This document shows, piece after piece, positions 8,181 through 49,314 of a stretch of 64,000 nt of DNA. Numbering within the stretch: position 1 is the first letter of the stretch; the number at the start of each line of letters is the position of its first letter. The stretch is from Ruditapes philippinarum (Eukaryota). The stretch is taken from assembly GCF_026571515.1 (NCBI RefSeq), contig NW_026865674.1:1-64000 (forward strand), written 5' to 3'. A model generated the notes under the pieces. It did not search any database. It was not told the DNA's origin and saw only the letters and a program-made list of their open reading frames with translations. The position numbers were made by a program, and so were the translations under genes.

Positions 8181-8197
8181 GACCCGTAGAGCCCAAA

Positions 8198-19584: not shown

Positions 19585-19660
19585 GTCTTCCCTGTTTTGG
19601 CGCCGTATGACCAAAAGTGTGTTAGTGCGCCGTAAAATGAAACCAATAAACAAACAAACA
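19585..19660 (+). mobile_element. Old LINE/SINE 3' tail predating the duplications
   Basis: GGCGCCGTATGACC..GTGTTAGTGCGCCGTAAAA..(AAAC)n resembles the LINE tail; paralogs at ~25470-25530 (-) and ~45470-45525 (+). Confidence 0.6.
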
Positions 19661-22973: not shown

Positions 22974-25747
22974 TAAGAATGAGATACAGTCGATTCTGAG
23001 TTGACTTTTGTAGAGATTATATTTTATAAAAAATGAAGGTTTCATCCCCCATACACACACAAAACAAAAGTATGGGGCCACTTTGTCGCTATAAACACTG
23101 AAAATCTCCCAAAGAAATTTGGAAAAAAAGTAACGGGACTTCATTTCATGAACAATTTGATAAAGTGGACTTTTGCGTGCGTAATGAAAAAATGCAATAA
23201 AAACATAAAGTTTTGTCTGTAAAGGGAAACGCAATCACATATAAGATTAATTTAAATATATAGTGTACCGGAGTTAAAACTTGAGTTAGTTTTTTATCAG
23301 AACCATATTTGCTTACATTGATTTATACGAGTAAGGTCTTTGATACTCAATCTTTGCCAAAAAAGTTTTATTTTAGGAACAAACAAAAAATGAGAGATTT
23401 CTTTATCAAATTACTAAAAAGTAGGCTCAAAGTTGTTACTTTGACAGTACTTATCTATCCATAAAACCTTTAGAACTGTACAATTTAGCTTAATATAGTT
23501 GAGGACTGCCCATATATTCATTGTATACACTATTTCATCTATTTCACACAGTTTTGATTATTCTTAATTAACAACAACAATGTTTAACGTATCCAAAAAA
23601 ATATAATAAATAATAATGTATTCATTTATTCTGTTTGTTTGTTTTTGTTTTGTTGTTGTTGTTTTTTATTTATTTTGGAAGTATACCATAACCCGGAATG
23701 AAACCACGTTGAACCCTATGGGAATAAGTACTCAAAACAAAATAATAAATTATGATATCATCTAAAAGATAAGGAATGTTTTTCTCGGAAGAAACGAATA
23801 TTTTTCTTAGGACTAATGAGTATTGTCAGTATAACAAGTATAACTAATGTTCTACTATTAATCACTGTACAAAATCCATCATTTTGCTGAAAGCACCGTT
23901 GATGTTGTTTTTTCTTCATCCAAGAATCTTTGACACTTACAAAATAACCGTAGGAGATTTTGCTATTAATTTTAGTACTAACAAAAATCAATGTATACAT
24001 ATGTTTAAAGAAAGTTATTTTTTACATTCTTTTCTTAATGTAAATAACAATAGAATTAAATTTGCACTTTATTTATAACATTTGTTACAAGACAATTAAA
24101 AAAAACAACATTTCTCACATCTATCGTACTGTACCCTTTGTACTGAATTAGCCGTTTTTTGTCATGAATGTGTCCACTTTATGATTCATTTCAAGCTTTA
24201 ACGTGAAAATACAATTATATTCAATGACATCGGACGATTCAATCAATCAGAGTAGCATACTTATGTATATATTTTAAAGTTTAGATGACTTGTCACGTAT
24301 GTAACATCATTAGGTAGCACGCCGATTCAATGCCAATTTATTTTGCTACTGTCTGATTCAATGTTAAACATATCCGTCTAGGACATGCTACAATGTATAA
24401 GCATGTCAATTACTTCAGTCAAAAATTATTTAATTTTTATTTTGACTAATGATTTTTTTATAATAATTTGACATTGAATGAACAATATTTGAAGATAATT
24501 TGTCATCACGATCTTTGACACTATGTAACGAGAATGTCGAAATAATAAGGAAAACAACTCTTCTGAGAATGTGGAAAGTAAACGATATTAAAATCAAAAT
24601 TATCTTTTATTTGTTTGTTTAAGTTACATTAGTATTGTAAATGATAGAAATATTTACATAAAAAAAGGTAAAATAAGGTCTAAAAAGTTTGTTTCATTTT
24701 ATAAAAGTTCACATGGATATGTTTTAGTAACCATTTAAATGGAATAAGTCATAGGATAAGTCATATAAAAATATCATGTAGGTAGCGAAACGTGTTTGTA
24801 GGTCTTTAAATCATTGTTCTTCTTTAATGACTTTGTAGGATTCAATGATTTCCTATCTTAATCAATTTATAATGACGTGCCGTCCAGGGTTTGCCAGTGT
24901 GCCTTGTCCTGTCTAGTGTCCTACTGAGCTGCTTGCTGCTCCTTTTCTGTATTAAAAGCATGATTTTATCCGTGTGTTTGACCTTTAATATTTCTTTGAT
25001 ATATAAACATTTTTTTACAAGACCTTCAATCTGTGTCAGTGATAATTTTGTCTGTGAAATAGTATAAAATTATGAAATTAATGTTAATCTGTAATGCAGC
25101 TTAAATGCGCCGACATTCTATTTAACATGTTCGTTCAACTGCTGTTGTTTCATATTAGCTTGGACAATTACGCCTCCGATAAATTGCCAATGAAGATGAA
25201 CAATTACATTTTAGTTTACATCTATTATTTACGACTTTCTTTCTATATCAAGCTTTTTGAAATTGAGTTTAAAAAATGCCGTCTATTCTTTATGTAAGTT
25301 CTAACAATATTGCATGATGTGTTTAATAAATGTCAGTTATTTCCCTTTTTCTCCAGTGACTGTAAAGTATGTCTGTAGAACGGATGTGAACATAATGTAC
25401 TCTTAGTCCAATATCGAATATTGTGTAAGAATTAAGCACTTAGCAGGGTAACATTTGTTCATTCATCTGATGTTTGTTTCATTTTAAGGCGAACGAACAC
25501 AATTTTGATCATATTGCGCCGAAACAGGAAAGATGATTTCTGCTAAGCCCGATGTCTCAAAACTGAAAGTAACTACACATAACCTGCTGGAGCTAAAATA
25601 TACATAGACTTCAGAAATTTGGACTAATTTAGTCGCCTCTTACGACTTTGGTTTTCTTCGCCTTTTTATAATATGAACGGCACTTCTATTTTGCTCATGA
25701 AATGAATTATCCGTTAAAAATTAGATCAGATTTGTAACAAACATGAT

Positions 25748-25871
25748 GTTTAGCGCGGAGAAAGGTAGACTAGTACTGGTGTAACTCTCCAGGAACGATG
25801 GTTAGGAAACTACCTGCCTATATGACTGAAATACTGTTGGAAAAAGGCGTAAAATGAAACAAACAAACAAA
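25748..25871 (+). mobile_element. 5'-truncated SINE family 1
   Basis: 14-bp TSD GTAACAAACATGAT; empty sites at ~19375 and ~45250. Confidence 0.92.
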
Positions 25872-27582
25872 GTAACAAACATGATAGAAAAAGGTCGTTA
25901 GAAACTGTAAAACACGAACACGTTTTTGTACATTACGGCTAACATGATTTTCAGTTCTCATTTTAAGAAATAAATACAAGAACTAAATAAGATAAAGCAT
26001 CATCATTTCAATGCTAAACATTGAGGTATAGTCAAAAACATAATAAACGCACGGATTCGTGAAAGCGTTTAAACAAATTTGTCTAAATGCTGTCTTTATA
26101 GAAACTTAAAAAATTAGTTTGGAACAATAGTAAAAATAACATTTGCAAACAAGACGGTATCTAACTTTAAATATAATTTTGTCGAATGTACACCATAAAT
26201 GTAATCAAAAGACATTTTTACAACATGTCTATATCCGCTTATATTTTCGATAAGAGGACTGTTGTTTGAGTAAGGGTGGACTAAGTGTATTAGTTTGTTT
26301 GTTTCTTTTTAATTTCCTATATAAAGAGTTCAAATTATCTTTTTAACTAATTTTTATTTATATTTAAAACATTACCAAATGATATATTTTTACTTTTAAG
26401 TGATGAAAAATAATTCACACATTGAAACTAGAAACCATTCAATTAATAAAACGATGTAATTTCATATTTTATTATGCTGCGTTTACTGGGCCATAAGCTG
26501 TGCATAGACAATAGGCAACAGGAAATGTATTGTTTGCCAGCATTTGAATGAATAACAATATCCTATTTGGATAGGTAACATCTGAATGAACAAACGATTC
26601 ATTTTAGTCATGCTTCTTTATATCAATAGAGAATTTCATTTGTCCATAGCAATATTAAACTGCTACGATTCAGAATAATGCAACCTTATCGTTGTAAAAA
26701 AAAACAAATTTGAAAGCAAAAGAAAACACAGGTAGTTGGCAAACACTGCAGATTGTAAGACAACAATCACGTTGAATTCGGACACACTAGAGGGAAAACG
26801 GTAATAATATTATAACAAAGCACTACAGATTTTATTATACAATATGACTTGAGCATACCTATTATTTATCATTACACATAATTATTTACAGCATACATAA
26901 CATAGAGCGAGAGTGAAAATACAGACATACAAATAAAATTTGGTATTATCAGTCTTATACATGTACATTATTCATATTTTCCTTCTGATACTAAATGATT
27001 TATTACAAAATATTGCTAATTTATTGAAAGAATTTGTATATGACATACATGTAAATGTATTATTGGTATCAAACTTTGATCGATACCACTTATAGGCTTA
27101 TAAACCGTAAAGTCTTTATCAAGACAGAATCACGTTGTTTCAAAATTCTTTCTGATGTTTCTGGAAAAGTAGTGTAATTATAATTTATTTATAGTTAGTT
27201 CTTATCAATGTCATTTTTATAATATCATGTTTTGGATTGAATTGTTCTTTTAAATCCTTGGCCTTGACGGCATAACAGTTGTGAAAGAGCTTAAATTAAA
27301 ATGTTCTCTATATTGTGTAATAGGTATAAGTATTATAGACAAAAATTATCAATATTTGACACAAATAGCTTTACCTTTTGGACATTTGTTTTTAAATATT
27401 TAATATATAAATGTTTCTCTAAATTATTATTTGCATAATTATACCTTTCTTCCAGATGAAATTTATAATCTTCTTTCATATGATGACTGCTTATATTCAA
27501 TGTTTATTAACAATTACCTTGTTGTGTTTTCATTGCAATTTTTATGTTTGTTGTTTTGTGTTGTATTTTGGGCTGGAGGCCT

Positions 27583-27710: not shown

Positions 27711-30273
27711 ACCAATGTATTAAAAATGTATAATATCAACCAGCTCACCATTTTTTTCATTACCAGCGTCGTAAGTATGTAAACCCTAATATATTTATTG
27801 AAGAAACTGAACCTCGTCCAGTCATAGATTTTTTTTTGCTTATTTGATATAACTTACAACGTCACAGATAATTGTCTAGCACTTAAGACTCGAAAAGTGC
27901 TGAGTTGTCCGCTTATAGAGATAGGGTTGTTGAAAATAATTTTATATTTTAAAAATATAAATTTGAAAATATTTTAATAGTCTCGTTTACATTTATTGTT
28001 TTTAAAAGAAGAGATTTTTGTTTTTCAAAACAACAAGTTGATAAATATAGACTTCTACATCTGTTTGTTAGAATATTTTCCAGCCAGATTTCTGTTGTAA
28101 TTCTTCAATACCATCTATACTAGACTGATATGTCTAACATCGGATCAGACAGAAGCAAAATATTTTGACACTGAATGGACAATATTTGAAGATAATTTTT
28201 CATCACGATCCTTGACACTATGTAACAAGATTGCCCTCTATCAGATCAGAGTTTATCTTAACATCTTATGATAACAATTCTAATCAGACAGTAAAAAAAT
28301 AAGATGACGATTATTATTTTTTATTTTTATTATTTGAACTTGGAGAATATCATAAGAAAAAAAACGTATGTGGAAAATATATTTACCGTTTCTTGTACCT
28401 ATTCAGTTATTATTATCAAACGTATAACATAAACAGTACAATTACATGGCACATGCATGTTGTCGCTGTTGGGGTTCTTCTTAAGCCAGAATGAGATTGT
28501 TTACATTTGCGATGTTGCTGTTTCGGACATTCTTTAGAGATTTCTTTTGTTTCCATTTATTCCTATTTGTAATTCAAAGCATATTTACAAATATTGTGTT
28601 ACCCTTAACATTACAGGAATAGATTTTGAATCTGCATTTACATATTCTATGTCGTCTAATCAATGTCGATGTAAGACTAACCTTTTTATGGTTTTGCTGT
28701 ATTTTAATGCATTGTGAATGTTTGATTTTGATTTGTGACCCTTACCTTCAATATGCCTTTGACATATAGACACACATTAATTATATTTTTACAAGACAAT
28801 CAACCAATGTCGGTCACTTATTTTTCCATTGAAATCATATAAATTAACCTACATATGTAATAAACTTAAAATGCACCGGCCTATTATTTAACCTGTTTGA
28901 TAAACTACTGTTGTTTCCAGTTAGCGTGTAAAATTACGACTTCGATAACTTGTCAATCAAGATACCAAAAAAATTTAAGTTTAGAATACATTTATTATTT
29001 ACGACTTTGTTTCTTTTACAAGCTGTGTTAAATTGAGAAGTTATAAAACGATATTGCAGTCTATTCTTGTACATAAGTACTAACATTGTGTGAAGCAGTT
29101 TTATATTGCACGCTGTGTTTTATAAATGTCGATTATTTCCCCCTTTTGTCTTCCGTACTTGTTTAATATGTCTGTAGAACAGCGGTTTAAATAATGTACT
29201 TTTAGTGAAGTGATGAAGGTTTTTGTGAGTTTAATGTTCTTGTTTTTTCTTCTTCTTTAATTTGTTCAATCATGTGATGTTTTCAAGGGAAAATAAACTC
29301 TAACAATTTTAATCAAGATTAACATTTACATTTAATATATACGTAAAATGTATTATCTGTTTATTTACCTGATTTTTCTATATCAGACGTTCATACTTCA
29401 TCCATTTTGAAAACAGTTTTTTCCTACAGCTGTAAGAATATAAGATTATGAAATAGATTTTCTTTTGTAAGACTTTAAACTGTTAGAAAATAATATAAAT
29501 GAAACAGTGAACGTAGGAAAGCTTCATAGTCATTATGTAACAATGGAAATAATTGTTAATTTGATAACACAAATAATGTTTCAGCTTAAATATTACCAAG
29601 AACTTAGTTATTTTGTATTTGCCTTAACTGAAATGCATATTAAATTATTATTAACAGTGAATTCATATACTGAATAAGTGTTTGATATTACTATTACATT
29701 ATCAATTATCAGCTTACAGTACAGTTTGAATACAGTATAAATAAACTGCAAATCAAATTTATTTCCGCTTATTTTCCAATTAAATAATATTTTTGTAGTC
29801 ATGTTAAAAGTAGCGATCAGATAAATATATACCTATATATGTTTGCCTGATTTACTTCAATTATCACCTTTATAAACAAAATTGAAGAAACACACCCTAG
29901 TAACATAAAGCGTGATCCTGTACTACCAAAACCATGAACTGGCAACCTGTTGGTAAACAAGTGCACAAAAAGTTTAAACGTTGATTAAATGATTTAAAAG
30001 GGATTCAGTTCTAGTTTAATACTGTTTTTCCTTAAGAAATAAAATGTAATATCATCTCGTTCTGAAAAATCTTGGCGATTTTTTGCATGTTCATAATGCG
30101 GTGTTTTAAAAGTTTCTCAAATCGGAATTTTACCAATGGCACTTTCATTTTTCTCATGAAGTGATTTACTCGTTAAAATAAAATTAGATTTGTAACAAGC
30201 ATGATATAAAAAGCTCTGTTGAAACTTAAAACACGAACATTGATTTTTACACAGTCATTTAAAACTGGTTAAG

Positions 30274-31045
30274 GTTTCAAAATTCAAAAATTGTACAAGC
30301 TCATCTTAAATTTTGAATTCTGCTTACGCAGGTGCTAGGGGGCGTGGACAGTGTAGTTTGCACGTGACAGTACCGTCCATGAAGAGGCTCAATCAAACCG
30401 AGTCTGCAACATTTTCAATTTTGCCGTGTTGGGCTTTTTTGGGGGATTCTTTTTTTCTCTATTTTATCGCCACATCAACATTGTTCGTGCCGTGTGGAGG
30501 CTGTATAAAGTCGCCCGTACCTTACAGATCGTTCAGCACGACATTATTGTCGTGCTTGTGGTAATTTAGTTCTTTCTATTCGGCTGTTTTCTTGTTAGGT
30601 GGTTTCAGTATTCCTCACATGAATGCTGTGGAATAACCCTTAGGATATGCGGGCTGCTTTTTAAATTTGTCTCTTGACGTCTTATCTGTGATATGCAGAT
30701 CCCCTTTCAAACTTCTATTTTATTTAGTTCCGCCAATTGTTTTCTCGTTTAGGGCACATGCATTCTTTAACTTACGGACCATATGCTGCTTTTCATAGCA
30801 CGGCACTTATGTGTTATATTTAAGGTTCCATGATAACCCTATATGGACACATCTGCGGATGTTTCAAAATTCAAAATTGTACCAGCTCATGTTAAATGTT
30901 GAATTCTGCTTAAGGCGGTGCTAGGGGGCGTGGACAGTAGTTTGCTCTTAACAGTACCGTCCATGAACAGGCTCAATAAAACCGAGCCTTCAACATTTCA
31001 ATTTTGCTGTGTTGGGCTTTCTTTTAGGATTCTCTTTTTCTCTGT
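30274..31045. mobile_element. Unclassified insertion bounded by ~185-bp direct repeats
   Basis: 30274-30460 and 30861-31045 are direct repeats; a reverse fragment of the same repeat sits at ~18132-18180; absent from paralogs. Confidence 0.7.
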
Positions 31046-31188
31046 TGTAACATGATTTTAAGCTCTCATTCTGAAAAATGAATTTCAATAACTAAATTAG
31101 ATAAAGAATTAACATATTCATGATAAATGTTCAAATATCATATGGAATATAAAACAAACGAGCAACACCAACTTTCATGTCTTTTGAC

Positions 31189-32185
31189 GAGTCTATGACA
31201 TCTAGACCCATTGACACCTCGACCCCTTAGACTTCTCGACCCCTGACACTTAGACCCCTAAGACACTTAGACCCCTTAAATATACCAGACATTTCGACCC
31301 CTTAATTAATGTATTGTTATATTAGGAAAGACTGTGCTTTTTTAAAAATAAAAAAACAAAGTAATGACTAGGTTAGAACATTTTCAGCCGTTTATTAATT
31401 ATTTATGTATATTATTTACAAAAACAGTAACACAAAAAATATACATGTACACACATTACATTGAAATAACAATACATAGAATACGCAGACACTATCACTC
31501 TCTTTATATACATGTTTGTATTACAATATATACAATTTTTGAAACTGTATTTATGTATGTCTTATTGATAATATTTTTCCAATTACACATTTCCTTGTCT
31601 GAATGATTGATCAGGTGTTGCTTGATCTGAAGGAGCGTCACTCCAAATACTACAAGTGAACTGTACGACACTTCATCTTATTACAAAATTTCAAAAATAA
31701 AGTTATGTTTTATTGATAATACATGTATATACCATTCTAATGACCGATAATAGGATAAGTATCGGCACGCGCCGGTGTTTATCCAATTACGTGTCACTGA
31801 ATAAACACATACATGTATGACAATAAACCAGCACACAGGAGATGTATGATGATAATTTATTAAAGTCATTTTCATTTTTTTGTGGTCAAAATATGTATGA
31901 AAGTAATTAAATGTGTTTAATGTTATTTTTTGTAAATATCTGACAGACCAAGTTAATAAATATATCTTCAACTATATCATTTACCTAAAATTACTGATAT
32001 ATTATTTATAAGTCTTACAATATTTTCAAAATATATTTACGGTTCTTTAAAAGTCTAACTCGAAATGTCTTAGTCAGTAGGGGTCGAAAAGTCATCTTAC
32101 AAGGGGTCTAAGAGTCAAGGAGTCTAGATGTCATCTTAATATCCTAAGGGGTCGAGAAGTCAAGGGGTCTAGATGTCTTACTTGA
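31189..32185. mobile_element. Non-autonomous MULE/foldback-like element
   Basis: Inverted arrays of GAC..(A/C)GACCCCT at both ends; 9-bp TSD TCTTTTGAC (31180-31188, 32186-32194). Confidence 0.85.
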
Positions 32186-35100
32186 TCTTTTGACATCCTT
32201 TGTAACATAAAATATTATCTAGTCGGGAATGACTTTGAAAATTAATTTATTACAACCACAATAATGTATGACATAAACAAACGTTTTAATTATTTAAAAT
32301 ATTTTTCATCAATCTTTGAGAATTGTGTTGAACATTTTATACTTTGAATGCAGTCAATATAACCTCTTCTGGAACTTAAGGTAAACGTTTAATTAAAAAC
32401 TTCAACTTGTTCATATACAAAGTATTTTTACATATACATAATAAGCTAACCGTTAATAAAAGAAACAAACACTTGACATATATTGTTTGTTATTTAAAAC
32501 GTAAGTTAGTTAAAATGTTGGATTTGTTCAGTGGTTAACAGAAAAAAGGAGTTCATGTAGAAAGGTCAAATCGGCAAAGTAGAACATGTTGCGGGCCCTG
32601 TTTGATCGAGCCAGCCCGGCTATTATATAACATTTCCAAATATCCGGTTTCAAAATTGCCATTTTACAGCACGTCTTTTTCTTTTCACACATTTATTCAG
32701 ATTTTTACAGAAGTTACAAATTAAACAGGGAAATTGAGTTTCGATGTTCGAAATCTAATTCTGTTTTCTCAAATTATTTCCATTCCAATATTTTCCTACA
32801 AAATATGCATCATTTTAAATTTCTAGACATAAACATGACTCTTTAAAAACAAGATAAACTAAAAGCAAGTTTGATGGTACATAACGTCAAAGAATCTTAA
32901 GTATATTTACAAAAGGGGTCAATAACCTTGCAATTGCCTCACGGTAACAATTTAAGAGATAACGCCCTTTCAGACTGTGTGGAGAAAATAAGAAATAGTT
33001 TATTGAAACTGCGTCTTGTATGTGTCGTATATTTCGTGTTTAAAGAGGTTGCAATTAATTTGATTCGGAAAATCAATAAGTTGAGGGAGGATATACATAT
33101 AGTGACTGAAACTAATTAACATAGTATAGTCTCATACTAGCCTTGAAGGCATTTCAGTGATTAAGTTGACGCAACGTCTTTTCCTTCATTGGTGAGGATA
33201 AACAAAATCTTATTTTTATCTAACGGACGGTTGTTTGAGTAAGGATGGACTTAGTGTATAAGTATTTTTTTTTCAATTTCTCATATAAAGAATTCCAATT
33301 ATCTTAAATAGTTAAACATAGTTTTTATCTATATTTCATACAATACCAATTTATTTACCTTTGAGATATAAAAAATAATTCACACATTGAAACTAGAAAC
33401 AATTCAGTTATAAACGTTGTAATTTCATGTTTTATAATGCTGCATTCACTGGGCCATAATTTACAAAGGAAAATATCTATGTGGGTTAAACATTAAAATG
33501 TATTCAATTCATAATTAAAAAGTGTTTACATTAACATAAAAATAAAGAAAAAATGATCAGTTACCGTCACATTTAGTAAAGGGAAATGACACATAATTGA
33601 AGTAAAAAAGGGTCGTATCCATTATTAAAGAGTTCGTAGTACAACACAAATATCATTACTTCTTTGGCTACAACATTATATTCTGATCACATACTATTAC
33701 GCTTGTTAATAACAATGTCTGGAAGTAAATAAAAGTTGTGCGTAGACAAACGACAATAGGAAATTTATTGTTTCCCAGCATTTGAATGAATTTCAATATC
33801 CTATTTGTATACGTAACATCAGCCTTAACAAACGATTCATTTTAGTCATGCTTCTTTTATATCAATATACAGTGTCATTTGTCCATACCAATTGTGAAAT
33901 GCTACGACTCAGAATAATGCAAATATACGTTGTAAAACTACAAATTTGAAAGCAAAGGAAAACACAGACAGATGCACAAATGCTGCAGATTGTAAGACAA
34001 CAATCACGTTGAATTAAGACGCAACTAGACAGAAAACGGTAATGATATTAGGACAGAACAGAACAGATTTTATCATATAATATGATTTGAGCGCATAACT
34101 ATTATTCATCATTACACATCACTATGTACAGCATACATTGAATACAGCAAAAGTGAAAATACAGACATACAAATAACATTTGGTATTATCAGTCATATAC
34201 ATTATTCATATTTTCCTTTCTTATACTAAATGATTTATTACAAAATATAATTTCTATGTATATTGGTATCACACTTCAATCGGTGCCATTTATAGGCTTA
34301 TAACACGTAGTCTTAATCAAGAGATAGTATCATCTTGTTACTGCATTCTTTCAGATGTTTCTCGATAAGTGGAGTAAATTTTATTTATTTATAGTCTGTT
34401 AATGTAAATGTCATTTTCACAATATCCTGATTGGGATTGAAGTGTTCCTTTTAATTATTTGCCTTGACGTTAAAACAAATCTGAAAGAGCTTAGGTTGAA
34501 ATTTGTTTTATATAGTGCAATTGATCTTAGTTTTATAGACACAAATAATTAATTTTAGGCACAAAGAGCTTTCCCTTTAAGACATTCATTTCCTTTAAAT
34601 ATTTTATAACTTGTTATCTTCTTTAAAACGAAAAGATCTATTTGCATAGTCATATTTGTGTTCAATATGTAACTAATCATCTTCCTCTTTATTTGATACT
34701 ATGTGAAAACAATTTAAAGTAGATAAAATGTCTGCTTTTATCATGACGCAATTATTATACACGAGGATCGCTTACTTTTCCGCTATCCTTCAATTGGGAC
34801 CGTTTTCAACATTAAAAGTTTTAAGATTCGAGTTTAAATGTTAAAATAAAAATCCCTGACTAAATATTAAAGGTAAAAAGGTATAATGAATTCCATACTT
34901 ACAAAATACACATCTGATTTGAGTCTAAGATTCCAATGTTTGGATAAATAATTAACGCATTTTTAAGGACGGAAAAAGCGTATCATATTTAGCGCTCTCA
35001 GAACAATCAAACAGGTCATTCAACAGGCTGTCACTGCCTTATGATAGAAATAACAAGGTCATCACAATAACATCTAAATAAGAATGTTAATAAAACCACT

Positions 35101-35899
35101 AGATTACAAAAAACAACACCATTTCTATCTTAATAAAAAGTATAGAATTTTTTCTGTACTTTTATGATCTTGCACTTGTACATTCGGTGAATCTTAATAA
35201 CTAAGTCCATGGCAAGACATTGTCAACATTCATATATGTAAGGTCGAAGTATATCCAGATAGCAATCAACTTTGACGAATATAAGGTACAAATATAAGAT
35301 GTAAAACTATCCATTGAAACTACTTGATATTCACTCGCATCAGTAACATATACAAACGGACTTTTAAACGACACTTAATATGTTCAATTGTAAGTTGTAC
35401 TGTTTAACATTTTCTGATAATTACTAAATCACACAGTAATAATAACATAAACGACGTATTTTTGATCATTTTGGCCATCACGATATGTGGCACCATGCAA
35501 GTAGACAGTCCTCATCAGATTGACATCTTACAATAGTAACTTTGATGAGAAAAAGAAAACTTAGATAATGTTCCATTTACAACATTATAATTGTCCTTAT
35601 GTCATATAATGTAGTTATTATAGATTTTATTCGAAAATATAAAATGCAAAGTTTACAAAAGTGATTTTTGAAGATAAAAATAAGTCCAGCCTAAATCTAG
35701 TTACTTTCAACGATTTAAGTTTTTCACAATGAAAATTATACTTGCATATTACATACACTGTAATGGTATTTTATGAGGTGAAGTACAAAACTGAATTCTT
35801 TTTAACAAAATATGATAGACTGGATCAACAAGGAAAGGCGGCGTTCAAAGAACGCAACCCCCATAACAAGAACAAATTTTGATTAATGTACAACTGTCA

Positions 35900-38800
35900 A
35901 CCTAAACTGTATTTTTTCAATTATGGAAATACAGATCGTTACTGTTCAGAAGCCAAATAACAAACATCATTGATAGATTCATATTTACATGTGCCAAGCA
36001 ACTGGCAAATGGATATGATATAATTATAAATACCTTTATAGAAATATTACATGATGGATGATTAAATTGATGTTGGTTAACTGGTCCTAGATGTTTAATT
36101 GGTCATAGATGCGTTTCAATTCAATTTCTTGTCTAACGTCTTATTCAACAAATTGCACTTCGAAAATTCTCACTTCGATTATCAATCAAAATAGGACGGT
36201 TTACATAAAGTTGGAATCTTAAAACAATTTAATGCAGAAGTAGTAAAATTTCGACACACACTCTCGTCGATTGTGTTTAAACTATGCATTAAATGTATGG
36301 TCACCCAAACATTTTAAGTGAACAAAAGACTTAAGGCTGCTGATCTCATTTTTTCCCCGTTATTTTCCCTTAAATTTTAGCTGTTTATTTCATTTATCAT
36401 TTGAATAGTTTACATTGTTTCGAATGGGATATTCAATTTGATCTCAATACTTAACTTTGTAACACTCTTGACATACATTAAGAACAATTACATTTCACAT
36501 ATGTTTGAATTTTATTTAAATGTCTGATGATGTACTTTCTCACTTGTTTCTCTGTAAAGTATACCTGAATGTATGCTGTGTACAAAAAGAACCATTGCCT
36601 GACGTTTTAGCCACACTTAACCACAATTCTAATAAACTTCGTCTTTTTAGCATAGTTTATTCATAGGTTTCGTTCCCTGAACAAAAAGAAAGACGAGAAT
36701 GTATTAATTTTGCGTGCATGTATTTACAAACTTTTTTTATCGTACTTATTATGAACATAATATGCGTTACACCTCAGGGTATATGAATGTAATTTTGAAA
36801 TTTAAAGTAAAATTAATTTCCTTTTTTACGCTCCGAGATGTTGAAAATAAAATGAAATTAAATTACAAAATGAGACGCTGAACGCCATAGGCTACCAGAC
36901 TTTCATATAACCGGAAAATGATATCGTAAATGATGATTATACATCTTGTTTGCTGCCATGTTAATACACGCCCGGCAAAACTCCACAAAACTTTTTAGCA
37001 TTGAAAAAAGGAGAGAACGGCATTTCCAATCTAAGTATAATTTTTTCCTTATAATTCATTTAAGTTTTATTGATATTGTTTTTCAAAAAATGAAAAATGT
37101 GCATCGAGCTTTTTGCTCCACCCATTGCCTTTTCGCTCGATTTCTTTCGAAAATTAGCAATAAACAAGTTTTAGGAAACCACAGGTTTAGTTTACTTTGC
37201 ACGAAAGACAAGTTCTTGTTATAGGGTAGATATTTGGCTAATATACTTTTTTCAATAAATCTAAAGTAAATATTATTTTTATGGTTTGGACGTACAGCTT
37301 TCAAAATACCATTCACTTTGTCAGTGGAAAAATGTGTTCTCGGATTTAATTTGATTCATTTTTGACAACAGCTTAGGTCTTTGAAAAATTTCCAACTGAT
37401 TGAATAAGAAGCAATATTTACAATTAGCCGTTTAAAGCGACCTTCCGCTTTATCTTAGAAATGCCATTGATTTGGCTTATCGCTCATGAATACACCACCA
37501 TTTCGAAGCAAAAGTTGTTTGGGCGTGTTATAAGAAATATAAAATATGTTTAAGATAATAAGAGGTTATCAACTAACTTTTAAGATAAGATTTATTATAA
37601 AGTGTTAATTAAGTGGGTTAAGAGGTAGACACCTTAACAATTGGCAACCGTTTCACTTATACGCGCCTTTGTATAATAAAAGAACAATTGTTTATTCATA
37701 CGGCTTCAAGATATGTCTCGCTAAAATATAAAACAAAACAAAGTACCTTAAATTTGCTATCATAATCATTTTTTAAAGAATTATTACCAAGTGAGGCTAT
37801 CATCTTGAATATTCAAATGTGGGTTCTATGCTCATTTTCCTTACTAAGTGTATTTGTACCACGTTTTGGCCTTTTCATATTTTGTGAGTATTTGAGTATT
37901 TTGTCACAAATCGATGTGACAACGTTAATATAATACATAATTACATAAAATAATTGCTCCGTTTACAAATTTCTAATTAGGAGCTGGTTTTATACACTTA
38001 AGCTAATGTGATTTGTAGCTCCAATTTTTAAAGAACCACTAGATTTATTCAGCAGATTTTGCGGAAATATGCATGTTCCGTTACCCCAAATATAACGTAA
38101 TTTATATTGCTGTTAGATATTCTGGCTCTGGCTAGCATCACGCAGCATAGAACAGTTAAGATAATAAGTTTAGAGTGACCACCAAATTTGTTTTTACGAA
38201 CAATTATAGGTATTATAGGCACCATTTCATATGTAATGCCTCTTGGTTATCATACGGATGTTAAGATCAGTGATAGTCAATACTATATGACTTGAACATC
38301 AATGCTCATCATTAATGATATTGTTATATCATTAACTATATTTGTTTACATTTATGTTATTGTTATATATCATAATTATATTTGTAGCCATTCCATTTAT
38401 CGTTTAGAACAAAACTATAATTGACTACGTAATGTTCAACATATCCATTTACACTTTAACTTTCCTTACACACTCTGAACAGCATGACAAAAAACTTTCA
38501 GTGGGATTATATTCTATACAAGATGTGTCAGAGGTAAAGAACGAAACATCAACAGGCCTTTCAGCAAAATGATGGATTTTGTACAGTGATGAATAGTAAT
38601 ACATTAGTTATACTTGTTTACTGACAATACTTATTTATCGGGAGAAACACGTTAACTATCTTTGAGATGATATCAAACATTTCATTACTTTGTAATATTC
38701 TGTAATATTCTCTCGGGGTATAAAAATGATTTTATCTGATGCTAGTAAAATGTTATTAGAAACTATCTAAATATTCTTTTAGGGTTGGATTTACGTCGAA

Positions 38801-40600
38801 TCAACACAATACAGATCATAAAACGTATTTCTAGCTACATTAATAAAGGATGCCCCTAGCTTAATATACAAATCCAGTTTTTACTATAATAAAATGACGT
38901 TAGGAAATGTTTACCAAAGCAAACTCGAAATTGAAATATCGGCGTAAACAGTTCTATCAAAAATAGGAAAATTTGTTTTGAGTATTAGAAATTATAAATT
39001 ATTCATAACAGATCTGTTATACTAGAAAAATCTCAATTCAAGCTGTCATACAGATGGGGAATTTGATACTGGCAAGTATAATTGGAATTCTGTTCGTTTT
39101 GTGACAGATTATCGTGTCAATGATTTTATAAATTAGAACTAAAATGACGAAGACTTTTTACTTCACAAAAATATATTTGGTGTTTTAAGGTCTCTCACAC
39201 TGTTAATAGAATGGGACAGACGTCAAATAGATCTATTTCAATAATGTACTCAATTCCGCTTGAGAAGCGACTTGAAAATATGGTTAAAATTGCCACTGAA
39301 CAGTTAAATTGGGCGATTTAATGCAGAGTGATTTTTTTATGTAATTAAGCATAACAGTTTACCATGCTATTTGTATAAACACTTGAGTTTGTATATTTCT
39401 CTGATTTAATTTTCTTAACAATCACGATGTACTTATGCATCCTGGAAAAAATAATATTATAAACCATCTCAAATCTTCTTATCTTTAATATCAAATTGTA
39501 CAGGAAATTTAACATGAAATAAAGTGTCTTCAATGAAAGACTAGATAGTAAAACATTTAGATTCATTTTTCAGAGATGACTCACAACTAACTATATCTAA
39601 ATTGTTGTCTTTTACTTCAATTCAGTAAAATAACCTTGGGCAATTTATGACAAACAACGATCTTATGAAGAGAAAAAAGTGATGAGGTTAATGAAACATA
39701 CCTCAAGTCAGGTCACTGTGGTATCAGGAAATGTTATCTTAATGAAATGAATATAATATCACTGAAAATTGCATGTTTTGAATGTACTGAGTTTATAAAT
39801 AATTGTTTACTTGACTTTATAATCAGAATACATGTACCTTTAGATTCATGCTAATTTTATGAATAGCTAATAAATGTTCAAAATAAAATAAAAAACATAC
39901 AAGATCATTTGAATTAAATCTTTCCGACATAATTTTAATGTCATTCCTTCGAATGACTTTGCTCTTTGAAATACACTATAGAGTAGTCATTACACAATAA
40001 TAAGTGGAATATAATGCAGTCTTCGTTGATTTTTTACTCGTTTCAATTTTGTTATTATTATAATAATAAAGTAATAGAGTGCTACATGTAAAGCAAAAAA
40101 AAAAAGTTAGGTTTTACGAAATGGGTTAAAGTATTTAAATTCTTAGTAAATTATCAGAATTTATTTTAATTATTTTAATGAAAAGATCTATGTAACAAAA
40201 ATATGCGTATGTCTTCCTGACACCTGAGAATGTTCTTGTCCTAAAATAATTAGTAAAAACGTAAGGGCGCTGTTACAGCATACAACCCCTGAAATGGATC
40301 CATCCACACAGACACTATTTCTTATCACAAAAAATAAATATTGTTTAACTCTTGGCACAACATTGATGGTCTGTGTTATAAGACATCTTTATTTCCAAAG
40401 GATATCAAGTTAATAGGCAATAAGGAAAATATAAACACGTATTTATCAAAACAATTTGTCTACCGTATTGTACAGACATATCAATAATGTTTTGAGTAAG
40501 CAGGGAATATTCATTTGGCAGATTAAATACTCATTTAACACTTTAAGTGAAATTAAATTAAATTTTCCATTGCGTAAACAGACACATATGGATTTCAGAT
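35900..40600 (+). repeat. Segmental duplication block C
   Basis: Reverse complement of ~57800-62380; closest over 38450-40490, more diverged toward 35900. Confidence 0.9.
36967..37527. mobile_element. Probable old TA-type MITE
   Basis: Degenerate TIRs CACGCCCGGCAAAACT / CACGCCCAAACAACT; no counterpart seen in the inverted paralog. Confidence 0.4.
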
Positions 40601-42814
40601 GAAGAAAAAACACATTATGCTTTCCAACACCAAACATGTATACGAAATGAACCCTACACTACGACTAAATGAATTTAGAGATCGTTTTGAAATTTGACTT
40701 CTAGTACAGGAATGAGTACTGTTTTGAGGCAAGCTCCGAGAATTGTTTGGAAATATTTTGATGATCGCAATTGCTTAGTTAACATGTTGTATTGGTGTAA
40801 TTCTGATGGTTAAAATTATACAAAAATGAAGTAATACATCGCGATTTTGTTTTGCGGTATTGATAAGCATCATTTCAAAGCAATTTTTGAACTTGCCCTC
40901 ATGTGCGAGTCATTTTCTAATTTAAAAGACAGATAATCATTTGAACAGAATTTATATTAGAAACGGCTTGCCGGCTGTGTAATTTATTATTATCAGAATT
41001 GCAAATATTTTCATGTACTTGTCTTTCAAAATATAAAACAGTATAAACAGTATGAAGTTATCAAACATAAACTTACTTGCATCACCTTTAAAAACAATTT
41101 GATAACAATATTAATGATAAAGAAACAAGAAACACTAGAGGCAAACACTTAACATTTTCCTGTCAATGGAGACAAGTATGTCCTTTATCACGTGCAAAAT
41201 ACCACATCAATGCCATTCTTAATGTTATAGTATTTTTTTCCAAAGTGATAAAGTAACAGATTTTTATATGCTTTGTAGAAACTCAAAGCGGCACTCTTTA
41301 AGTATGTGTATGTCACAGAAAAAATACTAACAATTTATTTCAAATATGTTTGTATCTGATTCTTCCAATATAATTAACCATAATTGCATATATAGGGTAC
41401 ATAAAAAGGAAGACAAACATGTTCATGCCTGGTATGTTGAAGTGATCACATATGGTACAATTGCTTCCAATTCGCAAGTCATCAACATTATTTTATTGTT
41501 TCCATTGTCTTTGATTGCTGTTAAGGCTTTGGGCAGCCAGGAAACTAATAGAGCATTCAAAGAGGATTTTTATTCAATGGCAATTAATTGGCACAATCAA
41601 AACAGAATTGTCACCTCTCTTTGTAAATAAAAGTCATGACCATTGAATACGCTATGACTTATAAAATCTAATTTTGAAAGTAACATAATATAACATATTA
41701 AAGGTGTAGGGAAAACATAAAAGATGGCAATAAGTAATTTTTTTTAACACAATCTTGAACATATTGCAGATTCTGGTCTTGAGTCTTTCAAAAAGAGGAA
41801 GAATACACATAATGTCTCTTGCCCATAGCACTAGTTCAAGCGGTATTCAATCATCAACACTTAATAAAATGATTGGAATCAAATATGCATCAACACGCTG
41901 ATACAATATTGTCAATCAAACTATTTTTAGATTTTGGTTAACAGATGTGCATGTCCTGTTGGCAAACGAATTGCCGGTTTTATGTCTTATATGCATTTTT
42001 CTTAAGTTGAGAGTTAAAGTTAGACGCTCAATGTCTGTGTCAATTTATTTTCAGTAAAAGCTTATCCTACCAAAGAAGTACTGATACTTATTACTTCAAA
42101 CCTAATTTCATTTGGTTACTTAAACGATAGATGATACTTTATCTACTGGCTAACTACAATAAAACAGACTAGTGGCTTTTAGAAAAAAGTAGAATTTAAA
42201 TGATTTTCTTTTCATAGGAAATAACTCAATTAATTACATACTGATACTTTTAAGATTTGTATATTTGTCTAAAAAATAAAAGAAGTTATGACTGTTTGGT
42301 TCAATATTTCGATGGCTGAATTGAAAAAGTTCCGAAATTTTTTTTTCTAAACACTTCGTTGAAGTAATAACATTTCACATTTGCTAATTGAGAAAATAAA
42401 CCCGGAATGTGTATGTATCACAAAACGGTAAACGTTTAAGTTTTAATAATAATAATCCTTTAAGCGATAAAACACAATATTTCGAAATTGATAAACTTAT
42501 TTATTAATAGAGACTGCTCACTTAATTTCCTTAAATTGGCCACACTTAAAATATACGGGAATGTCTCTCACAAACAAATTATGTAAGGAATACAGTTCTA
42601 TTTACTTATCCCTATGAGATTTGAAAAAAAAGATGTTTTCCAAAAAAGAAAAGAAAGGAATGACCTAAATTAACTGTTATAAGAGACAGTGTAAAATAGT
42701 TGTCTGGCATTTCGGGAAAATATTATGTGTAAGTCTAACATTTTCTTTCGTAAAACGTGAATGAGTGTAATCCAAATTATATTAAAATCATTTAATTTAA
42801 TATTATACACCCGA

Positions 42815-45800
42815 ATCCCAGCATGTAATAGCAGCATTATAACAGAACTGTTGAACTTTACTCCCATATCATTATTTCAATCTTTTGCCACAATTTGTAA
42901 ATTGAGACAAAACTAATGATGTTGCTGTAATGACAAATGATTTAATTATTACTTATGGAACAAAGATATGATTATGTAAATATATTTAATCGTTTTTGAG
43001 ATCCAATTCTAAAAATATTTAAAAGAAATGAATGTTTAAAAGGTAAAGCTATTACTGTCTCATATAGATCATTTTTGTCTATAAGACTTATACCAATTAC
43101 ACACGATATAGAAAACATTTTTATTCAAGCTCTTTCACATTTGTTAAGCTGTCAAGGGCCAGAATTTAAATGAACACTTCAATCCCAAACGGGATATAGT
43201 GAAAATGACATTTACATGAACTGACTATAAACGAATCAATAGGAATATTGTAACAAGGTGATCTATGTCTTGATTGACTTAGACTCTACAATTAAGAAAC
43301 TGATAGGTAACATCTGTTAAAATGCAAGTTAGATGCCAGTATGCATAAACATTATTTACCTAATAATATAATGTAACAATTGGAAATTACTTTTTTCTTT
43401 AACTCCGAATCAATTTAGCGTGAATATGTTGTGATGTCTTTCAATCTGCAGCATTTGCACAACTGTCTGTGTTTTCCTATACCTTCATATTTGTATGTCC
43501 TCAACGTTTGTGTCGTATTATTCTGAACCTTACCACTTTACAATTGGTATGGACAAATAACATTGTTTAATGGCATCAAAGAAGCATGACTAAAATGAAT
43601 CGTTTGTTTATGCAGATGTTACGTATCCAAATAGGATATTGATATTCATTCAAATGCATGGAAACAATAAATTTCCTGTTGTTGCTTTCTACGCACAGCT
43701 TTTATTTACTTCCAGACATTGTGATTAACAAAGGTGATACCATGTGATCAGAATATAATCTTGTTGCAAAATAATTGAATTAATGATATCAGCGTTGTAT
43801 TAAGAACACTTTAATAATGGATAGTTTTAGTTTTGTTTAGTTATGAGCCTTTTCCTTTACTAAATATAAGAATACATTTTAATGTTTTATCTAAAAGAAT
43901 ATTTTTATTTGTATTTTGTGGCCAAGTAAATGCAGCATAACAAAAATGAAATTGCAACGTTCTTTTCGTTTAATTGAATGGTTTCTATTTTCAATATGTG
44001 AATTATTTTTATCACTAAAAAGTCAATTTAAGGGTATTGTATAAAATATTTATATAAACTGTGTTAAGATAATTTGAACTCTTTATATGAGAAATTGAAA
44101 AATTACTAATACACTTAGTAAATCCTTATTCAAACAACTGTCCGTTAGATCAAGATAAGATTATGCTTATCTTCACCAATAATGAAATAAATTTAATTGT
44201 CAACTTAATAAGTGAAATACCTTCAAGGCTAATATGAGACTATGCTTTGTTAATTACTATCCGTCACAATATGTATGTCCTCCCTCTACTGCTTATTGAT
44301 TTTCAGAATCTTGCGACAAATTTATTGCGTCCTTTTTGATCACGTAATATACGACACTTACAAGACGAAGTTTCAATAAACTGTATATTATTTTATTTTC
44401 TCCACACAGTCTGAGGAGGCGAAATACGTTTAATTGTTACCGTTGAGCAATTGCAAGGTTTTTGAACCCCTTTTGTAAATAGACTTAAGATTCTTTGACA
44501 TGATGTACAATCAAACTTGACTTGTTTTTTGTTTATCTTGCTTTTACAGTCATGTTCATGTTAAGAACTTTGTTTATCTTGCTTTTTACAGTCATGTTCA
44601 TGTTAAGAACTTTGAAATGATTCATATTTATAGGAAAAGATCGGAATGAAATTTCGAACATCGTAACTCAATTTCCCTGTTCAATTTGTAATTGCTGTAA
44701 AATACTGTACAATTGTATTAATAGAAATGGATGTGTTGTCAGATGGCAATTTCGAAAACTTAAATGAAATTGTCCGTTATACGAACTTTATGTTGTATCT
44801 TAGCCGACAATGCCTCGATATTATTCTTGTTGAATGAAAAACTTGAAGAAGACGTAAACTATGGGTACGTATATTTTTATCACCTATCAAAAATATAAGC
44901 GGGTATAGACATGTTGTAAAGATGTCTTTTGATTACGTTTATAGTGTACATTCGAGTAAATCATATTAAATACCGTCTTGTTTGCAAAAGTTATTTTTGC
45001 TATTGTTCCAAACTATTTTTTTAAGTTTCTATAAAGACAGCATTTAGACACATTTGTTTAAACGCTTTCACGAATCCATGCGTTTATTATGATCTTGACT
45101 ATACCTCAATGTTTAGCATTGAAATGATAATGCTTTATCTTATTTAGTTCTTGTATTTATTTCTTAAAATGAGAACTGAAAATCATGTTAGCTGTAATGT
45201 ACAAAAAAGTGTTCGTGTTTTACAGTTTCTAACGACCTTTTTTCTATCATGTTTGTTACAAATCTGATCTAATTTTCAACGGATAATTCACTTCATTAGC
45301 AAAATAGAAGTGTCGTTCATATTATAAAAAGGCGAAGAAAACCAATGTCGTAAGAGGCGACTAAATAAGTCCAAATTTCTCAAGTCTATGCATATTTTAG
45401 CTCCAGCAGGTGAGGTGTGTGTGTTACTATCAGTTTTGAACCACCGGGCTTAGCAGAAATCATCTGTCCTGTTTCGGCGCCATATGATCAAAATTGTGTT
45501 GGTGCGCCTTTAAATGAAACAAACATCAGATGAATGAACAAATGTTACCCTGCTAAGTGCTTAATTCTTACACAATCTTCGATATTGGACTAAGAGTACA
45601 TTATGTACACGTCCGTTCTACAGACATACTTTACAGTCACTGTAGAAAAAAAGGAAATAACTGACATTTATTAAACACATCGTGCAAAATTGTTAGAACT
45701 TACATAAAGAATAGACCGCATTTTCTTTTATAACTTTTCAATTTTTTAACACAGCTTGAAATAGAAAGAAAGTCGTAAATAATGTATGTTTCTATCATTA

Positions 45801-47950
45801 ACAATACTAAAGTAACTAAAATAAACAAATAAAAGATAATTTTGATTTTAATATCGTTTACTTTCCACATTCTCAGAAGAGTTGTTTTCCTTATTATTTC
45901 GACATTCTCGTTACATAGTGTCAAAGGTCGTGATGACAAATTATCTTCAAATATTGTTCATTCAATGTCAAATTATTATAAAAAAAAATATTATTAAGTA
46001 AAAATAAAAATTAAATAATTTTTTACTGAAGTAATTCACATGCTTATAGCATGTACTAGACGGATATGTTTAACATTGAATCAGACAGTAGCAAAATAAA
46101 TTGGCATTGAATCGGCGTGCTACCTAATGATGTTACATACGTGACAAGTCATCTAAACTTTAAAATATATACATAAGTATGCTACTCTGATTGATTGAAT
46201 TGTCCGATGTCACTGAATATAATTGTATTTTCACGATGAAGCTTGAAATGAATAATAAAGTGGACACATTCATGACAAAAACTGCTTATTCAGTGCAAAG
46301 GGTATAATACGATAGATGCGAGAAATGTTTTTTTTAATTCCATATGTGTACTTTGCAACATTTCTTGTAACAAACGTTATAAATAAAGTGCAATATTTAT
46401 TCTATTGTTATTTACCTAAGTAAAGAATTTAAAAGAACTTTCTTTAAACATATGTATACATTGATTTTTGTTAGTACTAAAATTTATAGTTAAATCTCCT
46501 ACGGTTATTTTGTATGTGTCAAAGATTCAAGGATAAAGAAAAAACAACCTCAACGGTGCTTTCAGCAAACTGATGGATTTTGTACAGTGATTAATAGTAT
46601 TACATTAGTTATACTTGTTATACTGACAATACTCATTAGTCCTGAGAAAATTTTTCGTTTCTTCTGAGAAAAACATTCCTTATCTTTTAGATGGTATCAA
46701 AATACATTATTTTGTTTTGAGTACTTATTCCCATAGGGTTCAACGTGGTTTCATTCCGGGTTATGGTATACTTCTAAAATAAAAAAAACAACAAAAACAA
46801 AACAAAAAGAAACAAACAAAATAAATGGATACATTTTTGAATACGTTAAACATTGTTGTTGTTAGTTAAGACTAATCAAAACTGAGTGTAATATTTAAAA
46901 TAGTGTATACAATGAATATATGGGCAGTCCTCAACTATATTAAGCTAAATTGTACACTTCTAAAGGTTTTATGGATAGATAATTACTGTCAAAGTAACAA
47001 CTTTGAGCCTACTTTTAGTAATTTGATAAAGAAATCTCTCCTTTTTTGTGTGTTCCTAAAATAAAACTTTTTGGCAAAGATTGAGAATCAAAGACCATAC
47101 TCGTATAAATCGATGTAAGAAAATATGGTTCTGATAAAAAACTAACTCAAGTGTTAACTACGGTACACTATGTATTTAAATTAATCTTATTTGTGATTGC
47201 GTTTCCCTTTACTGACAAAACATTCTGTTTTTTATTGCATTTTCTCATTACGCACGCAAAAAAACCCTTAATCAAATTTTTCATGGAATGAAATCCCATT
47301 ACTTTTTTTCCAAATTTCTTTGGGAGATTTCAGTGCTTATAGTGACAAATTTGCCCCATACTTTTGTTGTATGTGTGTGTAGGGGGATATAACCTCCATT
47401 GTTTTTAAGTTTTAAAGATTGCATACTATAAAATAAATGTAAAATATGCTCTCTACAAAAGTAAACTCAGAATCGACTGTATCTCATTCTTGATGAGCTC
47501 AGAACTATTTATTTCTTAAGGCCCTGACACACTAGACTTCGCTTTCCCTTCATTTGCACGGCATTGTTGAATTTAACAAAGCGCCAGGAGATCGCAATAA
47601 AAATGTGATATTTTTGATGACATGGTGACTTCACGACGTCGTCCAACGTCCTAACGGCGATTACACGCATCTTCCACGGCGTTTAAATTGGCGATTATCT
47701 GCGTTCGGATAGCGCTTCAACTGTGTTCTCTGCGCTTTCACTGCGCTTTCGCAGCGCTCACTCTGCGATGAAATCGTAAAGCTCCGTAAAAGCGCCGTGC
47801 ACACGCAGTATAAACGCGGTAGAGACGCCCCGCAATCTCCGTACAAACGCCGTGGAGTCAATTCGGCGTTTTTTTGCGCTTTCGCGGCGCTCCTGTTTTG
47901 TTAAAGATGATGCTTCTGATTTGCTACGGCGTCCTTACTGCGATACCTTT
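42815..47950 (+). repeat. Segmental duplication copy A2
   Basis: Matches A1 directly and B1/B2 inverted; lacks the ~870 bp at A1 ~19965-20835; has a private ~42-bp tandem duplication at ~44528-44612. Confidence 0.92.
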
Positions 47951-48139
47951 GCGCTCATATCAGAACGCAGAGTGACGGCGTTTGTTTAAGCATGCTCAAA
48001 ATGCGCGCCTTCGGTCGACGTTCTATGCGATGCCACTACGATGCTGCGGCGATGTTTGCGATCTTACTGCGCTCACCTCGGCGTGAAAGTGAATTAACTT
48101 TGGGTGCCGTGAGAACGCCACCCTAGTGTGACAGGGGTT
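47519..48139 (+). mobile_element. Complete GC/CpG-rich Harbinger/Tourist-like MITE
   Basis: TIRs AGGCCCTGACACACTAG / AACCCCTGTCACACTAG; TTA on both flanks. Confidence 0.82.
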
Positions 48140-49314
48140 TTACAGGTAACAGTAGTAATGATCAATCGGATTGCAAACGAAGTTATAAAATGGGTGTTAG
48201 ACGAAGTAGTATGGCAATTAAACCGAAATTTACAAGTACTAAAAAGGACCATACGCAAAATGGTCAGATCAACGGAAGGTACGGCTTGACACGGCATTAC
48301 AACTAACAGTAGTGAAATATACTAAAGGGCGATAAAATGAAAATTCAATCATCCTTATATAAAATGCGTAATTGCATAACCATTTTATGAATACATATTC
48401 AATTGTTTATAACTAGAAAAAAGTACTGTCCTGGGCTGGGGTGATTATATTTGGACTTATCAGTACTTGGTAAAGTCCATTAATAGGATGGGCATTAACT
48501 GTAATCTATTATAGTAAAGTTACAATTTTGTGATCGCTTGGGCTCTGTTTAGAGCATTGATTCTCAGAGAAACTGTCCCCTATCACATAATATTTAGATA
48601 ATTAACATTTCACGAAATTTACTTGGTACCGTGATATAACATTCTTATTTGGACGAATTTTTTTTTAAAAATGTAACCAATGAGCATGATAAATGATGTA
48701 ATGATGTAAAAACGATATGTCAGACTTCATACAGGGTTGGTCCATACAAGTTCGATAGATTTATATCACTTTTTATCACTAGTCTAGCAAAATTATGACA
48801 GAAAGGTCAAATTATTGCCATCTAAAGGTGCGACGTTTTGTCCCTAGCCAAAAGACGATAAAAGCTAAATTCATTTAACTTCTCATTTTCCACAATTCAC
48901 TTACTATATGAAATAATATTTTTAAAGCAGCACACCTCCAGATTCATGTAAATTTTCTTGAAAATTTGAAAAAATGTTGTTAACAGTATATCTTTGCAAA
49001 GTTAACAGTATATCATTGTAAAGTTAACAAAGGAATGCAATTTACATATTATCAATGGCACTTACGAGGGCGAATCAAAAAGTTCGTGGAATTTATTTTA
49101 TAATTTCTGTATTTGACGTCCGATCTTCACGACACTTCAGATGCTTATATATAAATACATTTTGAATTGGTAAAGTACTACAAAGATATCAAAATATGCA
49201 AAAATAGCCCTTGCTGCGTTAGTAAGCAGTAGAAATAAAGTTATACATACTGAAAAATTCAGTCATTAATCGCACATAACATGAAAATTTTTACTAGAAT
49301 GTTTAATCTTTAAT

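Follow-up and report, generated by a model that had tools for sequence, protein, structure and literature searches.

Four copies of a short core were found in a 64,000-nucleotide stretch of Ruditapes philippinarum DNA, referred to here as the window. The four cores are copies of a non-coding element, about 90 bases long, whose sequence is constrained. We tentatively read them as the hairpins of a lineage-specific, locally duplicated microRNA (miRNA) gene, carried in its primary transcript (pri-miRNA), and we hold this reading with somewhat less than even confidence. The earlier note had proposed a pre-miRNA. This proposal stayed the best single guess, and the predicted fold behind it was good in copy A3, modest in copy A1 and at the level of shuffled sequences in copies C2 and C4.

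Conservation of the core

The two C-type copies, C2 (38558-38631, + strand) and C4 (60124-60197, - strand), were 74 nt long, and the two A-type copies, A3 (46559-46633, + strand) and A1 (23819-23893, - strand), were 75 nt long. All four were verified directly at the positions reported in the earlier note. C2 and C4 were identical, and C2 lay within a 104-nt run (38537-38640) which, as had been claimed, was the exact reverse complement of 60115-60218 around C4. The A1 and A3 cores were three substitutions apart. Between the types, 4 of 75 sites differed (three substitutions and one indel per pair), in agreement with the earlier count. However, the flanks, which had been described as aligning poorly, were partly homologous. 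A/C homology was above background for about 30 nt upstream and for 30-130 nt downstream of the core (downstream p 0.007, four of four pairs), and further upstream one of the four A/C pairs was borderline homologous (p 0.010).

The longest run identical across all four cores was a 21-mer with variable sites on both sides. It was located at 38570-38590 (+) in C2, 46571-46591 (+) in A3, 23861-23881 (-) in A1 and 60165-60185 (-) in C4, and it is the candidate 5p arm.

The downstream flanks had diverged by 35-36% between A and C units, and the probability of a core as conserved as the observed one was 3e-10 to 2e-9 at that divergence. The core was therefore more conserved than its block background, and the contrast between its few A/C differences and the divergence just downstream (P ~1e-9) meant that it was under constraint. 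It was also the sole high-identity A/C stretch, which supported the idea that it is the selected element of the repeated unit. The 104-nt run of C2 and C4 had P ~0.002 at block divergence and did not arise in 20000 simulations at local divergence. However, two further stretches away from the core, 104 and 145 nt long, were identical between A1 and A3 (P 0.017 and 0.0007 if divergence is uniform). The identity of C2 and C4 was thus the weaker evidence, and the A/C comparison was the real evidence for constraint.

A fifth copy was sought in the 64-kb window. Only the four strong copies were returned by nhmmer, the next match having an E value of at least 0.2, and the same four were returned by a covariance-model search, the next match having an E value of at least 1.1. 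The core was thus present in four copies within the window. No match was obtained in metagenome and viral contigs, collections that are not expected to contain animal DNA. Many prokaryote genome records held contigs with a eukaryotic rRNA primer site, and the five that were checked had eukaryotic rRNA genes, which was likely contamination. In four DNA runs from one sample, 52-82% of sampled words of 37500-41000 were present. This was not independent support, because the sample may be the source of the window.

Duplicated units

The cores were at homologous places within four units: C2 (36035-42960, +), A3 (42948-47947, +), C4 (57604-62234, -) and A1 (22509-27479, -). The C2 unit was non-coding, and its part at ~40600-42800 was absent from C4. 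Two truncated A-type units had no core. These were U4 (28118-34677, -) and U1 (17873-21194, +), whose end was homologous to the end of U4. In the self-alignment, plus-strand C2 ran straight into the directly adjoining A3. The minus-strand C/A junction was in two parts, one at the end of C4 (57604) and one at the start of U4 (34672), which continued the end of C4 across the junction, and A1 followed. These junctions suggest an ancestral C-then-A pair that may have arisen by tandem copying and may later have been duplicated in inversion. Such a history would place C before A on each strand.

Identity between paralogues was patchy, at about 76-82% upstream and 87-93% downstream for C2/C4 and at 75-97% for A1/A3, and this pattern suggests that conversion occurs between like units. 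The window had a G+C content of 30.7% and repeat types like those of bivalves. Out of 201 open reading frames of 55 aa or more, 146 were scanned (six picked below position 12000 and, past that position, the 140 longest), and Pfam cut-offs were reached by LINE and mariner-type domains only. A coding signal was sought in 10 paralogous blocks, and no ungapped segment of at least 45 nt had a synonymous excess. A promoter-like segment common to the A and C units was not found. A bacterial promoter scan gave chance-level results and is irrelevant to animal DNA.

Besides the unit junction, the sole other A/C link found was a 58-nt similarity (~70%, E 6e-4) of 45601-45658 to 61464-61521 and 36527-36588, in an orientation opposite to that of the cores. 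Upstream of the A cores, 45823-45985 and 46056-46200 (+) had long A1/A3 identity with homologues in A1, U1 and U4, and pieces of the former kept 88-94% identity in U1 or U4. Since both folded poorly, they may be tracts of conversion, or else DNA with a regulatory role. Compared to U1/U4, A1/A3 had an inverted segment of about 60-150 nt (~45975-46112 against 21100-21270 and 28118-28200), and U1 contained a perfect 23-bp inverted repeat at ~21195-21270. A segment shared by U1 and U4 and missing from A1/A3 contained a predicted hairpin (21020-21090, +, z -2.0; 28220-28290, -, z -1.1). Its pairing differed between the copies, and eight letters on its 3' side equalled the start of novel_250 (PMC8044141, file 2), likely by chance.

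Several repeats were also located. The A-unit ends (22274-22576 and ~47520-48140) had a fragment of a mariner-type transposase as well as a GC-rich element in which short terminal inverted repeats were seen by eye. The A units contained a SINE-like repeat at ~45350-45530, which predates the A-unit duplications and was covered by reads from all four RNA runs described below. A first exon with a TATA box and a splice donor was considered at ~45325-45410 and was dropped, because reads covering it continued past either edge into dissimilar sequence, the pattern of a dispersed repeat. Positions 35807-35865 contained 60 nt of a transcribed repeat that was very abundant, with a depth above 13000 per direction at 35849 in run X17. 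A broken LINE at ~5926-11730 had endonuclease and reverse transcriptase domains (Pfam) and an RNase H-like sequence (by eye), and it was interrupted at 8804-9347 by a 162-bp tandem repeat and a GGAC microsatellite.

Predicted folding of the core

The hairpin TTGT-CAGTG..TACTG-ACAA, which the earlier note had drawn by eye, was the minimum-energy fold of every isolated core, but it was weak in the C copies. In A3, the predicted long hairpin (46560-46647, +) had an energy of -25.8 kcal/mol and a z of -3.6 to -4.2 with the lower stem. The same hairpin was predicted in A1 with a z of -1.1 to -1.8 (~-1.5 with the lower stem). In the case of C2 and C4, folding was on a par with shuffled sequences (z -0.65 to -1.2), though the C copies were the best conserved. 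The cores were also ranked against 3000 GC-matched 78-nt windows of the same DNA, with boundaries that were picked after looking. The energy rank was 0.2% for A3, 1.5% for A1 and 5.4% for the C copies, and equally good single hairpins made up 0.03%, 0.17% and 1.3% of these windows, respectively. The sense strand folded better than the antisense strand in all four cores. The invariant CTTTC and AGAAA end runs can pair as a basal stem.

The RNAalifold consensus over 78 columns had 20 pairs. None of them was broken by the six variable columns, and none was compensatory. Random placement of six changes spared all consensus pairs in 2.4% of trials (P 0.024). The A/C-diagnostic T/G change and the indel fell on both partners of one A-type pair (P ~0.011, post hoc). 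When the alignment covered 97 columns, the consensus switched to a two-hairpin fold with one double-sided and one single-sided change, and the covariation of this fold was not above that of shuffles (94/500). In the C copies, the long hairpin took up ~0.55-0.63 of the ensemble and the two-hairpin fold ~0.35-0.44, at equal energies. In the A copies, the two-hairpin fold was 3-5 kcal/mol worse, with pair probabilities of 0.00. Each fold fitted the four sequences, with 97.6% and 98.9% of cells paired. With flanks included, at most five arm pairs were formed in nine of ten registers in C2 and in ten of ten in C4. Since the two-hairpin fold was isoenergetic in the C copies and no compensatory pair was present for the long hairpin, these predictions are suggestive of the long hairpin but do not single it out.

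A second predicted hairpin in the C units

A second hairpin was predicted about 410 nt downstream of the core in both C units. In C2 it was at 39043-39107 (+), on the strand of the core, with 26 pairs, -20.4 kcal/mol and z -2.9. In C4 it was at 59339-59404 (-), with -18.9 kcal/mol, z -2.6 and an extra G near the apex compared to C2. It folded better than the C core and was the best sense-strand single hairpin of 237 C-unit windows. With an identity of 0.988, its window also ranked first in C2/C4 conservation once the core was set aside. We put this coincidence of folding and conservation at a few percent, because 4 of ~150 windows of that block reached an identity of at least 0.975. No A-type homologue and no Rfam match were found for the second hairpin.

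Across windows, identity and folding energy had no positive correlation (r -0.18, -0.17), and other highly conserved stretches upstream of the A cores folded poorly (z +0.8 to -1.7). These results meant that conservation in the units was not generally structural. If the core is a miRNA hairpin, the second hairpin probably makes a small cluster with it.

Geometry of the candidate miRNA

If the core is a miRNA hairpin, a low-abundance primary transcript from each strand would carry it. Cleavage by Drosha, at about 11-12 bases above the basal stem, would leave a precursor of 69-70 nt, from which Dicer would release the invariant 21-mer (38570-38590) as the 5p mature RNA. This RNA would repress mRNAs via its seed. 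As a second possibility, a register nearer to the loop would give a precursor of 52-56 nt with the mature arm on either side. The C units, with the second predicted hairpin downstream, would be small miRNA clusters.

Processing motifs (basal UG, CmR, apical UGUG and CNNC), which are supportive and not required, were defined as in section 9 of PMC11701709. The register starting on the 21-mer was picked from 15 scanned. All four copies had U at 1 and 9, 16 pairs, C at -5, a purine at +5 and the -6/+4 mismatch, and two of the four, the A copies, had basal UG at -14/-13. CNNC at +16 to +18 was present in none of the four copies in any register scanned, and UGUG was not in the loop. The arm-pairing minimum of a miRNA is 16. 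The 16 pairs counted here refer to a fixed register and include one isolated pair and several of the G-U type, and they are below the 19 ± 1.6 arm pairs given for the curated miRNAs of MirGeneDB 3.0 in PMC11701709. The A copies had 16-18 arm pairs, and the C copies refolded in context and were two-state. Mollusc precursors are shorter than 80 nt and have loops of at least 8 nt according to the same source (PMC11701709), and both the precursor of 69-70 nt with a loop of 25-26 nt and that of 52-56 nt with a loop of 8-12 nt lay within these limits. The precursor energies were weak at both registers (-10 to -16 kcal/mol; -11 to -16 kcal/mol at the register of the 21-mer).

A strong contrast in conservation between hairpin and flank is typical of conserved pre-miRNAs. 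The 4 differences in 75 core sites against a flank divergence of 35% were such a contrast, which argued for a miRNA. Invariant runs were also found in the putative loop (18 nt) and the 3' arm (13 nt), over three independent lineages only. The invariant loop run is not explained by the model of a mature and a star strand, and it counts against a miRNA.

Like canonical animal miRNA genes as described in PMC11701709, the core had a predicted hairpin of about 70 nt, U at 1 and 9 and a partial set of motifs. Like duplicated canonical miRNA genes, it was present as near-identical paralogues in diverged flanks, with a second hairpin nearby on the same strand. In contrast to canonical genes, it had 16 pairs, a weak, two-state C fold, no CNNC and a loop as conserved as the arms. 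Canonical miRNA genes are defined by mature and star reads of 20-27 nt from both arms, with homogeneous 5' ends and overhangs of 2 nt. The likeness of the core lies in anatomy, and the core is a candidate member of this class.

Expression data

Four RNA-seq runs from four studies (paired 150-nt mRNA-type libraries) were used over 35800-48300, which includes the C2 and A3 cores, with 4-19% of each run. The depth of the core bins was below 1 in run X17 and 0 in the three other runs. None of the 15 splice joints listed for the four runs, five weaker ones aside, led into the C2 or A3 core. Repeats in the same region had depths of ~60 to 1300 per direction in X17. The low depth of the core spoke against a high-copy repeat and, for those samples, against an exon or UTR of high abundance. 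It is compatible with a pri-miRNA and does not support one, and it is silent on small RNAs. In X17, thin cover (depth ~2-5) was observed over 38719-40803, and about 11 reads at 39026-39050 had four fixed differences, as from an allele or another paralogue. The strand bias of the few RNA-seq reads was too small to use.

Alternative explanations

The main rival, which we consider unlikely but serious, is a conserved cis-regulatory, enhancer-like DNA that was carried by the segmental duplications and kept by transcription-factor binding. Such an element would be independent of orientation, and the cores were on both strands. Near-uniform conservation including the supposed loop, the weak folding of the C copies and the further conserved, non-folding segments of the A unit also fit it. 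The word TGACA, a Meis-type half site, was invariant across the cores. The 8-mer TGATGGAT occurred six times in the 64 kb, four of them inside the cores, and PBX-HOX oligos of PMC7706710 contain it; the four occurrences in the cores, however, represent one ancestral event. No target gene was found in the window, the A copies were strong hairpin formers compared to local DNA, and the second conserved peak of the C unit was a good hairpin. In the motif words TGATGGAT (PMC7706710) and TGACA, in AT-richness and in free orientation, the core resembles PBX-HOX/Meis enhancers and conserved non-coding elements. It differs from such enhancers in its four kept paralogues, the absence of a nearby gene and a potential for hairpins that exceeds the local background.

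It is fairly improbable that the core is a structured non-coding RNA of another kind than a miRNA, which might toggle between the long hairpin and the two-hairpin fold. It would account for the conservation of the whole 75 nt. Both folds were compatible with the four sequences and isoenergetic in the C copies, and the two-hairpin fold had its double-sided and single-sided changes. However, the A copies populated the long hairpin only, the covariation was at shuffle level, AU/GU-rich sequence pairs promiscuously and no Rfam family was matched. A further idea, which is speculative and highly improbable, combines this toggling with a miRNA. Both the miRNA-like hairpin and the two-hairpin fold would be selected, the C copies would be at the tipping point, the A copies would be locked in the processed form, and duplication would have tuned maturation by way of this structural switch.

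It is improbable that the core has no function and that its similarity comes from gene conversion or recent short-tract copying between duplicates. The patchy identity of the paralogues, the long identical A1/A3 runs elsewhere and the loss of the core from two A-type units (U1 and U4) agree with such copying. However, the core tract was both the peak of C2/C4 identity and the sole high-identity A/C tract. Its differences sorted as ((A1,A3),(C2,C4)) with no mosaic copy, identity faded gradually at the edges, and gene conversion is unlikely between sequences that are 35% diverged. Conversion, which the earlier note had listed as an alternative, could explain the identity of C2 and C4, but it does not easily explain the A/C similarity.

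Very little credence is given to a small box C/D snoRNA guiding 2'-O-methylation. The C copies had a C-box word at 38586-38592 and a D-box word at 38621-38624 that are canonical by the C/D consensus, and the variants at 38569 and 38591 were box-compatible. However, the canonical C word was in the C copies only, 28 nt separated the box words, and no conserved upstream C box or terminal stem was present. The best guide duplexes with rRNAs from other eukaryotes were 8-11 nt long, where shuffles gave 7-12. Exact antisense matches of the cores to these rRNAs reached 10 nt at most, against 8-16 nt (mostly 9-10) in 300 random windows, and one 13-nt match was upstream of the C2 core only. The A/C indel shifted the fifth-base register, and no host-gene exons were seen. 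The core shares C-like and D-like words with box C/D snoRNAs and departs from them in its short spacing, in lacking a terminal stem and host exons, and in antisense matches at chance level. The C/D-box alternative of the earlier note was not supported: spacing and terminal stem were wrong for it, and antisense matches to other eukaryotes' rRNA were no better than chance.

It is likewise very improbable that the core contains a micro-exon of 21 nt (38565-38585) or is a short terminal exon whose 3' UTR is conserved. AG preceded and GT followed these 21 nt in all copies, and stop codons in two frames were conserved. However, none of the 15 listed joints from the four runs entered the C2 or A3 core, where the depth was below 1 or 0. 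Judged by the splice-site consensus, the donor had no G at -1 and +5 and the acceptor had a purine-rich run upstream. Among ungapped segments of at least 45 nt, the 10 blocks contained no partner exon with a coding pattern, and the longer frame was broken by the A/C indel. The micro-exon raised earlier thus found no backing in the listed joints, the splice sites or partner exons.

A hydrophobic reading frame spanned the A cores and was discarded, since the C copies were frameshifted. Among SECIS, U7, H/ACA and Y-RNA layouts, compared by eye with their consensus forms, none suited all four copies, and none was listed by Rfam. A fragment of a high-copy transposable element is barely credible: the window was repeat-rich and the copy count covers the 64 kb, but the four copies were all at homologous unit positions and the core had a depth below 1 against ~60-1300 for repeats in the same stretch (X17).

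Comparison with known miRNAs and implications

The miRNA reading was compared with described families. Rfam gave nothing at gathering score in the window and chance-level matches only at the core. Exact arm words were absent from the full-text literature searched. They were also absent, as 9-10-mers, from the supplements of PMC8044141, in which a positive control detected sequences, and, as exact words, from those of PMC7488030, PMC11701709, PMC11067994 and PMC7773633, which were searched with no positive control.

The Manila clam mantle list (PMC8044141, supplementary file 2) contains several sets of near-identical 'novel' mature miRNAs. These sets are a bivalve precedent for local expansions, with no sequence match to the core arms: no entry of file 2 matched either arm, by eye or by exact 9-10-mer. 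The first nine nt only of novel_277 equalled the C-type 3' side, and novel_88, whose seed is different, had a loose likeness to the 5' side; chance may account for both cases (PMC8044141).

No described family was matched in this comparison, which covered Rfam, papers and supplements, and the core may already be annotated in the sequence sets of MirGeneDB or miRBase.

Animals commonly have lineage-specific miRNAs and conserved non-coding elements, so the find is useful rather than surprising. The core is real but is probably an ordinary kind of regulator. The miRNA reading makes a precise prediction for small-RNA-seq, with 5' ends at 38570, 46571, 23881 and 60185. If confirmed, the core would be a miRNA family new to annotation, probably organised as a cluster of two hairpins, that was found via paralogue conservation alone. 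The four copies and the two core-less units would then be a small natural series on the retention and loss of a young miRNA after segmental duplication.
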